Source: Promethearchaeota archaeon (lineage in GTDB: Archaea; Asgardarchaeota; Heimdallarchaeia; Hodarchaeales; Hodarchaeaceae). From it: 64,000 nucleotides of DNA. Of this stretch, positions 45,050 to 61,111 are shown piece by piece. Numbering within the stretch: position 1 is the stretch's first letter; each line of letters opens with the position of its first letter. The stretch spans positions 128,001 to 192,000 of the forward strand of contig JBHLMN010000010.1 in NCBI GenBank assembly GCA_048938105.1, in the 5' to 3' direction. The notes under the pieces were generated by a model that was given only the letters and a program-made list of their open reading frames with translations, was not told the origin of the DNA and ran no database searches. The position numbers and the translations under genes were made by a program.

Positions 45050-45334
45050 TTGACTGAAAAAGTAAGCTTTTATACCGATAAAAAATCTTGGGAAAGGTTT
45101 AAAGACCAGGTATATCGTTCCAGTGGAACAATGAGAAATTTAAGCAGTGAACTGAACAAGATTATTGACGATAATACTCTAATCAACTTAGAAGTCAATT
45201 TAAAGAGATTAATTTCATCGAAAGAAAACCAATCATTCTCTTTAGAAGAAATCAAGCAAGACCGACCGACCGTTCCTATACCTGCAGAAGAAATAATTCG
45301 TGAGATGAGAAACTCCCATGTTAATCTATCTTGA
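45050..45334 (+). CDS. Putative VapB-type antitoxin
   Basis: Small ORF overlapping a PIN gene; RHH-like N-terminus; AEEIIREMR C-terminus. Confidence 0.7.
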   Translation: MTEKVSFYTDKKSWERFKDQVYRSSGTMRNLSSELNKIIDDNTLINLEVNLKRLISSKENQSFSLEEIKQDRPTVPIPAEEIIREMRNSHVNLS

Positions 45335-45776
45335 CAGCTCTATGATTGTGAAGAGATATATCCAAGAAGCAGGAACATCTTTTGCAGACTTTCTCTATGA
45401 TCAAATAGGGCAAGGATATCTAACATTAGCATTTAATCTCCTGAATATTGTTGAAGTATTAGGCGTGTTTGATCAATATTTAAGAAGAAATTGGATTGAT
45501 CAAGACACCCTCAACAAAATAATGTCAAAATTCATTGATGAAACATTAAGATTACTGAGAATCAATCAGTCGGAAATATTACCTACTTTAGTTTCAATAC
45601 AAATGAATGCATGGACGTTTGCGTTACAAAACCGATTATATATTGTAGATGCGGTCCAAGTAACAAATAGTAAACGATTTGAAGCGAACTATTTTAGTTC
45701 GGGAGATAAATACGTTACTAATGTTGCAAACGAGCTTGGATTTGAGGTTTATACCCAGAAGAGGAAAATACATTAA
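45318..45776 (+). CDS. vapC: VapC/PIN toxin
   Basis: IYLDSS..VKRY..E, E, DAVQV, SGD acidic residues. Confidence 0.85.
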   Translation: MLIYLDSSMIVKRYIQEAGTSFADFLYDQIGQGYLTLAFNLLNIVEVLGVFDQYLRRNWIDQDTLNKIMSKFIDETLRLLRINQSEILPTLVSIQMNAWTFALQNRLYIVDAVQVTNSKRFEANYFSSGDKYVTNVANELGFEVYTQKRKIH

Positions 45777-45918: not shown

Positions 45919-47202
45919 TTACGCTCCTACTGCTGAATAATCCATCTCACTAAAACTTTTAGCTTTTCTGGGCCGGAGTCTATATGTTAAAAATCCTGCA
46001 AATGCTAGAGTTGAAATCATTAGCAAGAGTTCTCCCAATAAAAGCCAATTTAATCCTTGAAAGATTGTCGTAAGAGCAGGAATGTCTTGTGATAAACGAT
46101 TTCTCAGTGTTGTATTGATATTTATCCCAGTTAGATACTCTAGTCCAGTTGGAGTTACCCCAATAAGAACCCCCACAATAGCAATGATTCTAGCAATTCT
46201 AGAAGGTCGTGAAATACTCGGGATGTTAATTTGAGAAAGTACTTCGTGCTCTAATGTTCTGAATTCAATCTTTCCATCGATTTTACCCGTTATCAATGGT
46301 GTGATAATGAAACTCAGCTTTTGATTGGGCTTTGTAAGTTGTGCGACTCTAGAAGGGGGACTAACTAAACAACCAGGGCACAATGGAACTACCTGGATTA
46401 CATCTATAGCAAACTCAAGTTGTTCTAGCTTTTGGGTTTTTCTTGTGCCAGTCACAAGATAAGATTTCCCTTTTTCTTCTTGTATCGCAAAATGAGAGAG
46501 CTCAACAGTTAAATCAAAATTTTTATACGGAATCATTCGATCAAAGTATGAAATTCCAGTATAGATCGTTCTTTTATCTGGTCCTTTCTTTTTTAGTATC
46601 ATTTTCGCCTCTTGGCTAATTGGTTCTGCTGCTAGGTCTTCAGAAGTTAATATTACACTTTTAGTGCCAAAATCAAGTCCTATAGTTGGTAAATAGTTTG
46701 TTGTGAAACCTTTTCCTACAAATGCCTCTTTTAATGAAGTTTTCCCTGTCCCCAATTCACCTAGAAGGATTATCTTTGCTATGATTGACTCTCCTTCTTC
46801 TTCTGGAGCTATACTCATACCCCTTCCTATATCGATAGCGAGCTGCTTTAAGATAGACTCAGGATGAATTGAATCACTAGCTTGGGGAGATTTGAACCAG
46901 GTATCTCGAGCAGAAGTTTTTATAAATTCGATATCACTGGCTAATTTTTCCTGCCATTCAGTTATTAATTCAAAAACTTCGTTATCACTCACTTTTCCCT
47001 CTAAATCAGCTTTAGTTCCAATTAAATAAATCTTAATAAGTTGTAATTGGTCTGAAAACTCTATTATCTTCCTAAACCATTCAGTTATACTCTTAAATGT
47101 TTCTGGTTGTGATAGATCAAATAAAATTAGTACAATATGGGCTTCACGATAAAAACTGGCACGGTGGGTACTTTCAACGGTTGGAGGGTCAAGGAACATC
47201 AT
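45919..47202 (-). CDS. Circularly permuted Rab-like GTPase + beta-sandwich + two C-terminal TMs
   Basis: Motif order FLDPP(G3)-TKAD(G4)-TSAR(G5)-GELGTGKT(G1)-PTIG(G2); possible ATA start at 47214. Confidence 0.75.
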   Translation of the reverse strand: MMFLDPPTVESTHRASFYREAHIVLILFDLSQPETFKSITEWFRKIIEFSDQLQLIKIYLIGTKADLEGKVSDNEVFELITEWQEKLASDIEFIKTSARDTWFKSPQASDSIHPESILKQLAIDIGRGMSIAPEEEGESIIAKIILLGELGTGKTSLKEAFVGKGFTTNYLPTIGLDFGTKSVILTSEDLAAEPISQEAKMILKKKGPDKRTIYTGISYFDRMIPYKNFDLTVELSHFAIQEEKGKSYLVTGTRKTQKLEQLEFAIDVIQVVPLCPGCLVSPPSRVAQLTKPNQKLSFIITPLITGKIDGKIEFRTLEHEVLSQINIPSISRPSRIARIIAIVGVLIGVTPTGLEYLTGININTTLRNRLSQDIPALTTIFQGLNWLLLGELLLMISTLAFAGFLTYRLRPRKAKSFSEMDYSAVGA

Positions 47203-49622: not shown

Positions 49623-49886
49623 TTAACAACATACCTGTTTCAATTCTTGTCTTAGTAATTTTCTGATTTTAGTTTTCAAAACTCCACTTATACATCCACA
49701 TCCAAGTGGATGTGTTAAGATTGCATTTGATGGACATTGTAACTCGCAAGCACCACATTCTATACATTTATCTCCTTCTATGATTGTAGCTTTCTTATTT
49801 TCATCAAAAATAATTATTTGATGAGGACAAACATCGATACACCATCCACACCCAATACACTGATCTTGGAATATTTGTGCTGTCAA
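49623..49886 (-). CDS. hgcB: HgcB-like 2[4Fe-4S] ferredoxin
   Basis: CIGCGWCIDVCP, CIECGACELQCP, GCGC and terminal CC; TTG start after AAGGAG; directly downstream of the hgcA-like gene. Confidence 0.8.
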   Translation of the reverse strand: MTAQIFQDQCIGCGWCIDVCPHQIIIFDENKKATIIEGDKCIECGACELQCPSNAILTHPLGCGCISGVLKTKIRKLLRQELKQVCC

Positions 49887-49902
49887 ACTAATTTCTCCTT
49901 GT

Positions 49903-51567
49903 TTAAAATAAATACATTATTGGAGGAAATAACGCTGGTACTATTAATGCAATCACACTTAAAACAATAGCAGGAATAGAAAAGAGAACTAAATCACTCT
50001 CTACATCCAAATGATTTGTATAAGGTGTATTGCCAGCAAAATCTAAACCTATGAACATACTAACAAGTAATGTTAATGCAATCCAGAAAATTAAATTTGG
50101 CAACGATATACCTGGATCTTGCACCACCATATAGATAATTACGGTGATTACACTTCCTAAACCAAAAATAACTCCTTTAGTAAAGAAGGAATTGGTGAAA
50201 TTAAAAAGCGGGTATATCCATGCAAAAAGCATTGATAAGACTATTCCGAGGGCCATGAGGCGAAGGATAACATTAAACCAAAAAACTGCCCCTATAACTT
50301 GAAAAAACATTAGTATTGCTGCTAAAAGCATTAGTGGGAAGAAAAAAGTTACCAAAATAAAGAAAGAATGCTGTAAACCCATCAAAGTCCTAAAGGAGAA
50401 TTGAAATTTTACCTTGGCATGATTTTTTTCCTTTTTCTGCGACCTAAGAAATGAATTTAAATCATCAATATATACAGGACCGAATCTTGGTTTCCATCCC
50501 TGTTTCTTTAGCTCTTTATGATCTACTCCTGTAGCTGAAAGCTGAGGTAGTGTTATCTCCTTATGATTCACATGTTCATCTACATCAAAAAGCCTCAGGG
50601 CGTCGGAAATCTGAGAATGAGTGAAATGCTTCCCTCCAGCGGCACACCATACATTAATCCCACTAGAATCAACTATTAAAACATAACATGTAATGTTCTG
50701 TTTAACTAGCGATCGCCAAACTGCCCATACAGTCCAGTAATAATTCCCTGTAATTAGAAGTGGTGATTGAGGAGAAGGTGTTCCAACGGTGTACAATCCT
50801 GGTGAAATTGATTTTCGGGTAAATATTCCATTGAGAATGCACCAAGCCACTTTTAATCCCTTAAAGTGTTTTCCTAATACTGTTTCAAATGAAGATATTG
50901 GCTTAATTCGAATTTCTGTGGCTAGCTTTGGCTGACATTCAAAAAATTTTATGGGACTCTTTTCATAGAGTAGTTTGAATGAAAAAAACGGGGTAAGTAA
51001 CGATTCGAAATCTTTAATCGGGTGTGTGGAGACGATATTCTTCATTATGCTTAATTGCGAATTCATAAAATGCTTGAATGAGAAGACGAGTTTTTTGAAA
51101 GAAGATGTAGGATAACTGTCAGCTGCAATAAACATTGTCCCCGATTCTTTTAATAATTGAGCTGTTTGCTTCAGAAAAAGTTTTTGCCTAAGAGGTGAAA
51201 ATTCGGAAAGCGCAAAAGTTGATATTATCACGTCAAATTTACCAATATTCTTTAACTTATTAAATATCTGATATGATACAAAATCACCCTGAATAAAGTC
51301 AATATCAACGTTTTCTGTAATTGATTTTTCCTTTGCATAGGCTATCATTTCTGCTGAAATATCCACTGCAGTTAATTTTAATCCTCTTTTTCGAAGGTAA
51401 ACTGCTAACTGGCCAGTCCCACAACCAATTTCAAGAATGTGGCCTTGGACTCCTATTCTCTCTTTAATCATTTCATAAATTAGTTGTGATTCGGGAAAGA
51501 GTTTATGAAATTCCTCATCATAACTTTCAGGTTTTTTTTCAAGGATTTTCATATAAATAAGACTCAT
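49903..51567 (-). CDS. Class I SAM methyltransferase fused to HgcA-like corrinoid + TM protein
   Basis: LEIGCGTG, VDIS..M, QGD (MTase); PGLY.VG.P...P.L.TGNY, GINVWCAAGG, LPQLSATGV, FGPV (HgcA corrinoid domain); 4-5 TM with DFAGNTPYT. Confidence 0.85.
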   Translation of the reverse strand: MSLIYMKILEKKPESYDEEFHKLFPESQLIYEMIKERIGVQGHILEIGCGTGQLAVYLRKRGLKLTAVDISAEMIAYAKEKSITENVDIDFIQGDFVSYQIFNKLKNIGKFDVIISTFALSEFSPLRQKLFLKQTAQLLKESGTMFIAADSYPTSSFKKLVFSFKHFMNSQLSIMKNIVSTHPIKDFESLLTPFFSFKLLYEKSPIKFFECQPKLATEIRIKPISSFETVLGKHFKGLKVAWCILNGIFTRKSISPGLYTVGTPSPQSPLLITGNYYWTVWAVWRSLVKQNITCYVLIVDSSGINVWCAAGGKHFTHSQISDALRLFDVDEHVNHKEITLPQLSATGVDHKELKKQGWKPRFGPVYIDDLNSFLRSQKKEKNHAKVKFQFSFRTLMGLQHSFFILVTFFFPLMLLAAILMFFQVIGAVFWFNVILRLMALGIVLSMLFAWIYPLFNFTNSFFTKGVIFGLGSVITVIIYMVVQDPGISLPNLIFWIALTLLVSMFIGLDFAGNTPYTNHLDVESDLVLFSIPAIVLSVIALIVPALFPPIMYLF

Positions 51568-51757
51568 TCTTATTCAATTCCACTAGGTCTCTTATAAAAT
51601 TGAATCAGCTTTAAAATGAATACTACTCTTCTAAACTTCTTTCAGCTATAAATTAGTTCCTGCCCGAAACTCGAAAGCATGATTTTTATGTTCTTCATAA
51701 AGAAGTTCTATGTTTTCAAAGCCTTCATTAATGAATAGCTCTATTTTTAAGAATTGT

Positions 51758-58478: not shown

Positions 58479-59471
58479 TTATACAGTAATCTCGATGCTA
58501 AGTTTCCGTACTAGCTCTTTGTAGCGGTTTCGGACAGTTACCTCCGTAACATGGGCTACTTCACTGATTTCCCGTTGTGTTCGTCGTTCTCCATTGATTA
58601 TTCCCGAGATGTAGATTGCTGCTGCCGCAAGTCCCGTTGGGTCTTTTCCTGCTGTCAGTCCTGCCGCTTTTGCCCGTTTTAGGATAGAGGCGGCTTTTCG
58701 TTGACACACGCCTGACAGTCGTAGTTCTGTTCCGAATCGCACTAGGTAGTCTATGGGTGACGCTAGTGGGATGTTCAGGTACAGTTCGCGGAGGAGCAGT
58801 CGATAACATCTGCCTAGTTCTTTTTTGGTGATCCGTGATTCTTTTGCGATTTCGTCCAATGTTCGGGGTACACGTCGTACTCGTGCGGATGCGTAGATGG
58901 TCGCCGCGACCATAGCTTCGATCGATCGTCCCCGTACTAGGCGTTTTTCGATTGCTTTCCGGTAGATGATTGCTGCGGTTTCCTTTACATTTCGTGGGAT
59001 TCCCAGCTGGCTTGCTAACCTGTCCATTTCGGACATTGCGAATGCCAGGTTTCTGTCCATGGACGAGTGGACTCGGGTCCGTATCTGCCATTTTCTGAGT
59101 CGGTAGATTTGTGCTCGCCGTGATGCTGACAGTTTATTGCCGAATGTGTCCCGATTTTCGTATCCTATGATGGTTGAGAGTCCTTTGTCGTGTACTGAGA
59201 ATGTTGATGGTGATCCCACCCGACTTCGTTTATCTCGTTCTTCTGAGTTAAATGCCCGCCATTCGGGTCCTTCATCGATCAGTCGTGTTTCCAGTACGTA
59301 CCCGCATTTTTCGCAGATCAGTTCTCCCCGGTTTTCATCTGCTACGATATCGGTTGACCCGCAATTTTTGCATTCGAGGATTTCTTCTTCGTCTTCTGCC
59401 GCTGCCTTTTTTTGGGGTTTCTCCTTGTCCCCTTTTATGAGTGCCATTCTCTGTGGGCTCCTTTTAATCAT
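58479..59471 (-). CDS. tfb: Transcription initiation factor IIB
   Basis: CKNC..CEKC Zn ribbon, GPEWRAF B-reader, two cyclin repeats (GRSIE; GKDP), TEVTVRNRYKEL. Confidence 0.98.
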   Translation of the reverse strand: MIKRSPQRMALIKGDKEKPQKKAAAEDEEEILECKNCGSTDIVADENRGELICEKCGYVLETRLIDEGPEWRAFNSEERDKRSRVGSPSTFSVHDKGLSTIIGYENRDTFGNKLSASRRAQIYRLRKWQIRTRVHSSMDRNLAFAMSEMDRLASQLGIPRNVKETAAIIYRKAIEKRLVRGRSIEAMVAATIYASARVRRVPRTLDEIAKESRITKKELGRCYRLLLRELYLNIPLASPIDYLVRFGTELRLSGVCQRKAASILKRAKAAGLTAGKDPTGLAAAAIYISGIINGERRTQREISEVAHVTEVTVRNRYKELVRKLSIEITV

Positions 59472-60273: not shown

Positions 60274-60696
60274 TTATTCCATTACTCGCGTGAGATTAAA
60301 AGTATCGAAATGCTTGTCAAAACTATAGATTTCAGTGAGATTCAAGCGGTCCATCAAAATTTTGGCTAACGAGTCATTAATCCCTACTTTATATCGTTGA
60401 GCGAGAACAGTGGCCCCTTGATAGTCACTATGGGGCACATCGAGGACTGTAATCGATTCCTTTGTTAATAGATCATAAATGAATTGAGACGATTCACTAT
60501 AACTCTTACGAGATTCTAAGATGTTTGCTACTTCTGATAAATGTACAACACTAGTGACGACGTTTTCTCCATTATCCACTCGTGTGATAATCTCCCTCGC
60601 GACAGTTTTTATTCTTTCGAGATGTTTTGGGAGCTCTTGGATGGGCTCCAGAACCGCATATAAAAATATCGAAGCATCAATAAAACGAAGTTTCAT
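60274..60696 (-). CDS. vapC: VapC/PIN toxin
   Basis: FIDAS, HLSEVAN, INDSL, IYSFDKHFD. Confidence 0.9.
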   Translation of the reverse strand: MKLRFIDASIFLYAVLEPIQELPKHLERIKTVAREIITRVDNGENVVTSVVHLSEVANILESRKSYSESSQFIYDLLTKESITVLDVPHSDYQGATVLAQRYKVGINDSLAKILMDRLNLTEIYSFDKHFDTFNLTRVME

Positions 60697-60932
60697 GCTT
60701 TGTCTCCACTAAGTAAATACTCCTTTAATTTATGGTAATCCGAATAGACTTCGGGGGGTATTTCAACCTTAAGGAATTGAAAATACTTTTGTAAATTGGG
60801 GTCATCTTTAGGGATGACTAAGAGAAGATCACCATCTTCAACTAGAAAAACTTCGTTTGATTGGATCTTTTTACGCCATTCAGGAGGTAAAACAACTCGC
60901 CCTTGAGAATCGATACGTTTAAGCTCAATCAT
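60693..60932 (-). CDS. AbrB/MazE family antitoxin
   Basis: MIELKRIDSQGRVVLPPEWR; 4-nt overlap with vapC; likely start ATG 60932. Confidence 0.85.
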   Translation of the reverse strand: MIELKRIDSQGRVVLPPEWRKKIQSNEVFLVEDGDLLLVIPKDDPNLQKYFQFLKVEIPPEVYSDYHKLKEYLLSGDKA

Positions 60933-61111
60933 AATGAACCCATATTCTAATGTCATTCCCCACTTTATAAAGCTGATCCCCAATTGTTCTTCGTGATTAC
61001 CATGTAACTTTATATGAAATATTAATCTAAATCGATATTGAATTGGTGGGTTTCGTATCTTCATTCCAGTCATCTTAACTATCACTTTGATGCTCTTTCA
61101 ACAAAAAAAAG

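Follow-up and report, generated by a model that had tools for sequence, protein, structure and literature searches.

A putative SAM-dependent corrinoid methyltransferase system related to HgcAB in a Hodarchaeaceae genome

A two-gene locus was analysed in a 64,000-nucleotide stretch of DNA (the window; positions 128,001 to 192,000 of the forward strand of contig JBHLMN010000010.1, assembly GCA_048938105.1) from a Promethearchaeota archaeon of the family Hodarchaeaceae, phylum Asgardarchaeota. Its first gene joins a class I S-adenosylmethionine (SAM) methyltransferase to a corrinoid membrane protein resembling HgcA of the mercury-methylating pair HgcAB, and its second gene encodes an HgcB-like ferredoxin. 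We denote the methyltransferase by M, the corrinoid membrane protein by A and the ferredoxin by B, with :: for fused parts and + for separate genes, so that the window locus is M::A + B. We propose, with a probability of about 60%, that the locus encodes a two-gene, three-module corrinoid methyltransferase, in which the methyl group of SAM is passed to cobalt, the ferredoxin serves as reductant and the methyl group is then handed to an acceptor. Judged by its sequence, the locus is a member of the CpaM/HgcAB-like corrinoid system, the sister family of HgcAB. NCBIfam already has names for both families, CpaM and HgcAB-like fusion, so the module is not new as a kind.

The locus and its encoded proteins

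The M::A gene (49903..51567, minus strand) encodes a CpaM-type methyltransferase fused to an HgcA-like corrinoid membrane protein, 554 amino acids in all, and the B gene (49623..49886, minus strand) encodes a 2x[4Fe-4S] ferredoxin of 87 amino acids with a GCGC motif and a C-terminal Cys-Cys. Both are separate open reading frames (ORFs) in different frames, 16 nt apart, and the spacer (49887..49902, minus strand), read directly from the sequence, holds an AAGGAG ribosome-binding site. The class I SAM methyltransferase domain takes up residues 1-215 of M::A (50923..51567, minus strand), with G48, G50, and G52 in motif I, the acidic residue D69, and S121-E122. It is followed by a corrinoid-binding domain (residues 253-380; 50428..50811, minus strand) homologous to HgcA and to the large subunit of the corrinoid iron-sulfur protein (CFeSP), which includes the cap helix GINVWCAAGGK (residues 303-313; 50629..50661, minus strand) with Cys308 as the presumed cobalt ligand, and by a membrane domain of five helices (residues ~386-546; 49930..50412, minus strand). 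A preliminary description of this DNA, made from the letters alone, had placed at 49623-51567 a 554-aa ORF and, 16 nt downstream, a ferredoxin with its own ribosome-binding site; its account of the two ORFs (554 aa, 51567..49903, and 87 aa, 49886..49623, both minus) stands, and every motif that it quoted was found again: LEIGCGTG, VDIS, and QGD in the methyltransferase, TGNY, GINVWCAAGG, LPQL, and FGPV in the corrinoid domain, and two CxxCxxCxxxC, CIECGAC, and a terminal CC in the ferredoxin, where GCGC is present too. The start codon of the B gene is TTG, which corrects an earlier reading.

Matches to profile hidden Markov models (HMMs) were well above chance. With Pfam, Methyltransf_25 matched M::A at E 2.8e-18, class I methyltransferase models covering residues ~39-150, and CdhD/PF03599 matched residues 255-352 (E 3e-14, 53 bits). 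The two best matches of the protein were the CpaM and HgcAB-like fusion models of NCBIfam. NF043040 (CpaM) aligned to residues 2-191 over model positions 1-191 of 216 (125.4 bits, E 2e-36), which made it the top methyltransferase model for this domain by ~80 bits, and a same-genus M::A protein reached 222 bits with it. NF043039 (HgcAB-like fusion protein) aligned to residues 253-517 over model positions 15-279 of 350 with 206.1 bits (E 1e-60; below the cut-off of 285), and the ferredoxin covered positions 296-349 of the same model with 51 bits. NF040863 (HgcA) gave M::A a lower score, 167.6 bits (E 4e-49; below its cut-off of 275), in an alignment extending through the membrane domain to position 317 of 325. 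The ferredoxin matched NF040864 (HgcB) over positions 8-93 of 93 with 71 bits and E 6e-20 and has all the hallmark cysteines, which bears out the earlier view of it as HgcB-like. The CpaM model is typed in NCBIfam as a hypoth_equivalog, and SAM-to-corrinoid methyl transfer is hypothetical even for the CpaM family.

Three modules in four arrangements

An HgcAB-like match above cut-off was present in 58 of the 300 Asgard genomes surveyed, and the modules were found there in all possible states of fusion. In the M + A::B arrangement, 11 of 12 Asgard loci have a same-strand gene of ~220 aa directly upstream of A::B, and the three such genes that were scored reached 265-280 bits with the CpaM model (cut-off 180). 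The M::A + B arrangement was seen in the window and in 38 further sampled loci, with the ferredoxin gene directly downstream in 37 of the 39. M + A + B is represented by a second copy of the module in the window's own genome (contig C14, L003: 6367-8267, minus strand), which consists of a CpaM-like methyltransferase of 220 aa, an HgcA-like protein of 324 aa and a ferredoxin of 72 aa, and by similar loci in other genomes; the C14 copy has the cap helix NVWCSAVGGN and a ferredoxin without the Cys tail, and in the tree described below it stands alone on a long branch. A word-index protein search with the CpaM paralog returned Asgard relatives only, none of them a named CpaM. M::A::B occurs in four genomes of two families as single uninterrupted ORFs of 596-655 aa that contain all three parts and two 4Fe-4S motifs. 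Three of these ORFs were scored, giving 247-261 bits for CpaM and 356-385 bits for the HgcAB-like model, and passed both cut-offs.

As a negative control we used 120 canonical hgcA loci from named genomes, taken by the codon pattern of N(V/I)WCA(A/G)GK. The CpaM-domain HMM matched no canonical A ORF in these 120 loci, and a CpaM-type gene was adjacent to canonical hgcA in 0/120; a methyltransferase match of any kind was found near the gene in 9/120, at 27-58 bits and 0.4-5 kb away. The preliminary description had stated that canonical HgcA has no methyltransferase domain, which held throughout this set. Since the modules are fused in several permutations, and the methyltransferase is missing from the canonical loci, M, A, and B appear to act together, specifically in the non-canonical clade, and this is textbook fusion evidence for a functional link. 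It had also been suggested that the fused methyltransferase supplies a dedicated SAM-to-corrinoid step in cis. The fusion permutations and the absence from canonical loci strongly suggest such a role, and the catalytic step itself is one that we infer.

Many M::A + ferredoxin pairs in the survey lie in one frame with a single stop codon between them, often TGA (e.g. G178:C65, G205:C16, G238:C1). Selenocysteine read-through of these in-frame stops was considered, but they are probably ordinary stops between neighbouring genes, since TAA and TAG were as frequent as TGA. A major facilitator superfamily transporter gene lies just upstream of the C14 copy on the same strand.

Relation to canonical HgcAB

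M::A shares with canonical HgcA a CFeSP-type corrinoid domain (PF03599) and five predicted C-terminal transmembrane helices, and the ferredoxin shares with HgcB two CxxCxxCxxxC motifs, an extra conserved Cys and a C-terminal Cys pair. The canonical cap-helix motif N(V/I)WCA(A/G)GK, on the other hand, is lacking, as Cys308 is present with Gly312 at the Lys position. In nearly all of the 120 canonical loci the cap helix is G(I/V)NVWCAAGKGTF or differs from it only slightly, and the motif Lys is kept in all 120, whereas the window protein reads NVWCAAGGKHF against canonical NVWCAAGKGTF; in this gapless register Gly312 stands at the Lys position, and the next residue is itself a Lys. Conservation of G312 is 90% or more among 111 fused homologs, and the residue after it varies in a 33-sequence alignment.

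In a maximum-likelihood tree of the corrinoid and membrane domains (83 rows), the 30 canonical HgcA rows formed one clade with a Shimodaira-Hasegawa-like approximate likelihood ratio (SH-aLRT) support of 100, and all CpaM-linked rows fell outside it save one long-branch row (P0112). The window protein was placed outside the canonical clade, on the side of the bona fide HgcAB-like fusions, in a 10-row M::A subclade (support 99) within a 13-row clade (96). A larger Loki-type M::A clade, with a cap helix reading AARG, was separate from this subclade. The tree needs three changes for the M::A fusion, yet its well-supported branches are compatible with a single origin, and we make no claim of independent origins. 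Taken together, the NCBIfam scores below cut-off, the placement in the tree and the change of the motif Lys to Gly indicate that the window locus is not canonical HgcAB. The proposal of the preliminary description that the Lys-to-Gly change marks a paralogous branch agrees with both the 120/120 conservation of Lys and the separation in the tree. Asgard sequences had already been placed in a 'fused-HgcAB' subtree by Lin et al. 2023, who removed the first 327 columns of their alignment for poor quality of alignment; the methyltransferase domain would fall in these columns.

A canonical-type hgcA gene seems to exist in the Asgard phylum beside the CpaM-linked forms. In one Asgard genome (G025:C110, L181, 1067-2092, minus strand) an HgcA-like gene with the canonical cap helix GINVWCAAGKGTF is followed downstream by a ferredoxin gene.

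Predicted structure, conserved residues, and ferredoxin docking

The AlphaFold2 model of M::A, built with 111 homologs, had a mean predicted local distance difference test (pLDDT) of 94.4 and a predicted template modelling score (pTM) of 0.90, the latter making the inter-domain packing confident. It shows an N-terminal Rossmann-type domain, the corrinoid domain and five membrane helices, predicted at residues 390-421, 427-455, 461-483, 489-513, and 519-546. The top Foldseek match was 9a0b_A (E 1e-11), a deposited computational model of HgcAB, followed by class I methyltransferases and CFeSP; no experimental HgcA structure was found in the copy of the PDB searched. The CFeSP large subunit 2h9a_A aligned to residues 253-376 (E 1e-10), with its cap-helix Thr opposite Cys308. 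The SAM site of the methyltransferase domain is intact, and the structural matches of that domain are class I methyltransferases. In the 33-sequence alignment the SAM-site residues G48, G50, G52, and D69 and the pair S121-E122 were invariant, and across the 111 homologs G48, G50, E122, T273, N275, G303, N305, W307, C308, A310, P341, L343, and R393 were invariant, with G52, D69, and S121 at least 90% conserved. Among 28 ferredoxin orthologs the eight cluster cysteines, the GCxC motif (C63, C65) and the last Cys (C87) were invariant. A Cys-Cys occurs in the last six residues of 30 of 37 M::A-linked ferredoxins (CxC in 3, a single Cys in 4), and the Cys tail is absent from ferredoxins of the split type (0/4) and of the triple fusion (0/4).

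We also predicted the complex of M::A with the ferredoxin, in a model built without cobalamin. The complex scored 0.76, a mark attained by 58 of 80 solved complexes and by 2 of 110 mismatched pairs, against 0.01 for the best control. The runs shared at least 63% of contacts, and the partner pLDDT was at least 74. The predicted interface comprises residues 308, 311-312, 342-351, 362-365, 379-386, and 515-520 of M::A and residues 15-23, 39-52, and 59-65 of the ferredoxin. Because no HgcAB structure has been solved, it is unlikely that the predictor remembered the complex. The model thus supports docking of the ferredoxin on the cap-helix face of the corrinoid domain.

Proposed mechanism and the methyl acceptor

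In the mechanism that we propose, the HgcB-like ferredoxin would dock on the cap-helix face and reduce the cobalamin to Co(I). SAM, bound by the fused class I methyltransferase domain, would then methylate this Co(I) to methyl-Co(III), whose lower ligand would be Cys308. The Cys-ligated methyl-corrinoid would next give up the methyl group, in the form of a carbanion or radical equivalent, to a membrane-surface acceptor, probably a thiophilic metal or metalloid presented by the GCxC motif and the C-terminal Cys-Cys of the ferredoxin. Such a corrinoid relay would turn the electrophilic methyl group of SAM into one able to attack a cation, and it makes chemical sense if the acceptor is a cation which SAM cannot methylate directly. 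For canonical HgcAB, SAM is the proven donor, acting through methyl-Co(III) with Cys ligation (PMC11588087), and the preliminary description was right to cite this role.

The acceptor is probably a thiophilic metal or metalloid, a reading favoured by the cysteines of the ferredoxin and by the operons of the Loki-type sister M::A clade. In that clade an ArsR/SmtB regulator gene (56 bits, cut-off 55) was found in 18 loci, directly upstream in 8 of them, and in 6 loci the gene directly upstream, on the same strand, is of the ACR3 type for arsenite efflux (274 bits, cut-off 283). In the cultured L. ossiferum the order is a divergent ArsR-type gene, an ACR3-type gene, M::A, the ferredoxin gene and a cation diffusion facilitator (CDF) efflux gene. 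In the literature, linkage to ArsR-type regulators and ars genes is frequent for canonical hgcAB as well.

Several observations weigh against the proposed mechanism or its acceptor. Arsenite, As(III), is methylated directly by SAM enzymes, so that arsenic needs no corrinoid relay. The metal(loid) assignment is borrowed from a sister clade ~30% identical; no ArsR, ACR3 or CDF neighbour was found in the window's own subclade, whose neighbouring genes vary between sub-lineages. Among the nearest orthologous ferredoxins, three have one terminal Cys in place of Cys-Cys. The window methyltransferase domain, at 125.4 bits, misses the CpaM cut-off of 180, and the ferredoxin, at 71 bits, misses the NF040864 cut-off of 99. 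Purified canonical HgcAB uses SAM without any methyltransferase domain (PMC11588087), so a dedicated methyltransferase is not strictly required for this chemistry. Finally, the window genome, which is 99% complete, yielded neither CobS nor CbiB. It encodes at least nine proteins with B12-binding domains, several of them small and of methylotrophic type, so the organism uses corrinoids and probably imports them.

A wider proposal, which we put forward tentatively and regard as possible but doubtful, is that CpaM, the HgcA-like protein and the ferredoxin form a B12-dependent, polarity-inverting methylase for thiophilic metal(loid) cations, an organometal(loid) route independent of ArsM in Asgard archaea and Chloroflexota, and the ancestral complete form behind HgcAB.

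Alternative explanations

It is unlikely that the acceptor is organic, that is, a membrane lipid, a quinone or a small metabolite methylated at an unactivated or nucleophile-poor position. The membrane anchoring would suit such a substrate, a gene of the geranylgeranyl reductase family adjoins the ferredoxin gene, and a radical SAM protein abuts the window-type ortholog in two genomes. However, the reductase gene is convergent and is missing from the eight orthologous loci compared; it was therefore rejected as a clue to lipid function, and the lipid substrate raised in the preliminary description lost its ground. The extra Cys and Cys-Cys tail of the ferredoxin and the sister-clade ArsR, ACR3, and CDF genes point instead to thiophilic ions.

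Quite unlikely, in our judgement, is a role of the methyltransferase domain in repair only, as in MetH, where SAM and a low-potential donor would rescue Co(II) and the routine methyl donor would come from a protein encoded elsewhere. The set of corrinoid, SAM-binding domain and small redox protein does mirror the MetH reactivation set, and the small methylotrophic-type B12-binding proteins of the genome could be read in the same way. But no second methyl-donor-binding domain or gene was linked to the module in the ~60 loci examined, the methyltransferase is the sole constant partner and is fused in all permutations, and no corrinoid protein of the CFeSP/acetyl-CoA synthase type was found in the window genome.

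We consider it improbable that the locus is a true mercury methylase, an HgcAB ortholog with a built-in SAM-loading domain that makes methylmercury. In favour of such an enzyme are the HgcA-like corrinoid domain with its cap-helix Cys, the membrane domain, and the CIECGAC, extra Cys and terminal Cys-Cys of the ferredoxin, together with an HgcAB model as best structural match and SAM as the HgcAB donor. The scores tell otherwise (168 against a cut-off of 275 for NF040863 and 71 against 99 for NF040864), as do the position outside the canonical clade and the Gly in place of a Lys kept in 120/120. Moreover, cultured P. furiosus and M. methylutens, which carry HgcAB-like fusions, made no methylmercury (PMC5893877; PMC10083202). 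The mercury role considered in the preliminary description is thus unlikely.

A reductive role of the corrinoid, e.g. in halomethane dehalogenation, with methyl transfer not physiological, is very improbable: heterologously expressed HgcAB is reported to dechlorinate CCl4 (2026 preprint, 10.64898/2026.04.26.720869), but such a role gives no reason for the strict linkage or fusion to a SAM methyltransferase with an invariant SAM site, a linkage absent from canonical hgcA loci.

The fusion itself is well attested. A search of 5.8 billion proteins returned 447 matches to M::A, and nearly all of the best 120 of these are of 540-590 aa and carry both domain types; the matches listed are named from Hod-, Heimdall-, Loki/Prometh-, Odin-, Thor- and Hermodarchaeota, and one of them sits on the 6.03-Mb genome of Ca. 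Lokiarchaeum ossiferum. Window-type orthologs in same-genus genomes are of 553-556 aa, and the phylum survey gave open frames of 551-561 aa in the same genus. In the ESM Atlas two clusters, 97-98% bacterial and mostly Chloroflexota, share the architecture, and one Chloroflexota-type cluster superposes on the Atlas model of the window protein with a TM-score of 0.79 over 522 residues. No indels were found in the locus in contigs of four public runs from three studies, and one 7.9-kb contig of the probable source run covers the methyltransferase domain, the linker and the cap helix; runs X2-X4 leave some stretches of the locus without coverage, gaps that carry no weight either way. Logan contigs end at ~50,638-50,673 in all runs compared, which could be taken to mean that an assembly or frameshift artefact has joined two separate genes; these ends, however, fall on the ultra-conserved cap-helix codons, where contigs of other organisms match too, and not on the domain junction, and with the same architecture in hundreds of ~550-aa proteins, mostly Asgard, the artefact is refuted for practical purposes.

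Neighbouring genes and other observations

Upstream of M::A the window carries a transporter gene of the Na/Ca-exchanger family, and downstream of the ferredoxin gene lies the convergent geranylgeranyl reductase gene. The exchanger gene was considered as an operon member and rejected, since orthologous loci do not conserve it and a TATA-like box separates it from M::A. This element, TTTTATAA (51592..51599, minus strand; sequence read directly), is ~28 nt upstream of the M::A ATG and is a possible promoter of the M::A gene's own. Orthologous loci carry instead genes for a methyladenine glycosylase, a radical SAM protein or an aldo/keto reductase. The radical SAM protein, of 380 aa with a Cys-rich N-terminus, abuts the M::A start in two same-genus genomes (L165: 5184-6326; L169: 5414-6556) and is absent from the window.

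Elsewhere in the window, the gene at 45919-47202 (minus strand) encodes a protein of 427 aa that has Ras/Roc small-GTPase matches and a membrane helix at its C-terminus. Small GTPase genes recur near the C14 paralog and the orthologous M::A loci; they are typical Asgard 'eukaryotic signature' genes and probably unrelated to the module. An overlapping gene pair at 45050-45776 (plus strand; 94 and 152 aa) has by eye the look of a toxin-antitoxin system (PIN/VapC-like), and a similar pair lies at 60274-61085 (minus strand). A 330-aa ORF at 58479-59471 (minus strand) appears TFB/TFIIB-like by eye, with an N-terminal zinc ribbon and cyclin-like repeats, and coincides with a jump in G+C (0.425) and in AT skew at 58-60 kb.

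Significance

The fused form is present in public databases under generic names, and we found no paper describing the methyltransferase-HgcA fusion or its CpaM link in the open literature (subscription journals not covered). The present analysis adds a Heimdall/Hod-type subclade that is divergent and has no metal-resistance genes around it, shows that the genome holds a split copy of the module besides the fused one, supplies the 120 canonical hgcA loci as a negative control, and finds all four fusion permutations within one phylum. What the HgcA family does in nature, and how its corrinoid is loaded with methyl, are questions on which this sister family bears. It was not until 2024 that SAM was shown to be the donor for HgcAB, which has no evident SAM-binding domain; a SAM methyltransferase always adjoining or fused to the corrinoid protein gives independent comparative support for the SAM-to-cobalt route. 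M::A offers a tractable protein in which the SAM-to-cobalt step could be separated by removing one domain, and the ArsR/ACR3/CDF operons of the sister clade, one of them in a cultured Asgard archaeon, make the question of the acceptor approachable. For surveys, it follows that an hgcA-like match from Asgard or Chloroflexota in a metagenome should not be taken to mark a mercury methylator.

Comparison with known systems

The closest named system is CpaM with the HgcAB-like fusion protein ('fused HgcAB' paralogs, as in P. furiosus and M. methylutens). It shares with the window locus a class I SAM methyltransferase, a Cys-on corrinoid membrane protein and a 2x[4Fe-4S] ferredoxin, it lies on the same side of the tree, and it has the same linkage to CpaM, which in the window is fused at the N-terminus. 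It differs in that its methyltransferase is free and its corrinoid protein joined to the ferredoxin, whereas in the window the methyltransferase is joined to the corrinoid protein and the ferredoxin is free; this free ferredoxin has GCxC and a Cys-Cys tail, which the fused ferredoxin parts of HgcAB-like proteins mostly lack, and the window proteins score 125 against 180 and 206 against 285 with the two family models.

Canonical HgcA and HgcB share with the window proteins a CFeSP-type corrinoid domain with cap-helix Cys, a C-terminal membrane domain, and a downstream ferredoxin with an extra Cys and Cys-Cys, and ArsR-type regulators lie near some members of both groups. SAM as the methyl source is shown for HgcAB and inferred for the window protein. 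The latter differs in its N-terminal methyltransferase, its Gly for the motif Lys, its separate clade and its score below cut-off, and the tested relatives of its clade, unlike canonical HgcAB, made no methylmercury. The CFeSP large subunit (AcsC/CdhE; PDB 2h9a, 4djd) has a homologous corrinoid-binding domain (E 1e-10), but it is soluble, has a Thr in place of Cys308, and receives its methyl group from methyl-tetrahydrofolate through MeTr, to be passed to the Ni site of acetyl-CoA synthase. The reactivation module of MetH (AdoMet domain and flavodoxin) resembles the window system in logic only, in that SAM and a low-potential carrier methylate a reduced corrinoid; the folds are unrelated, without homology, and what is a repair step in MetH would be the main route here.

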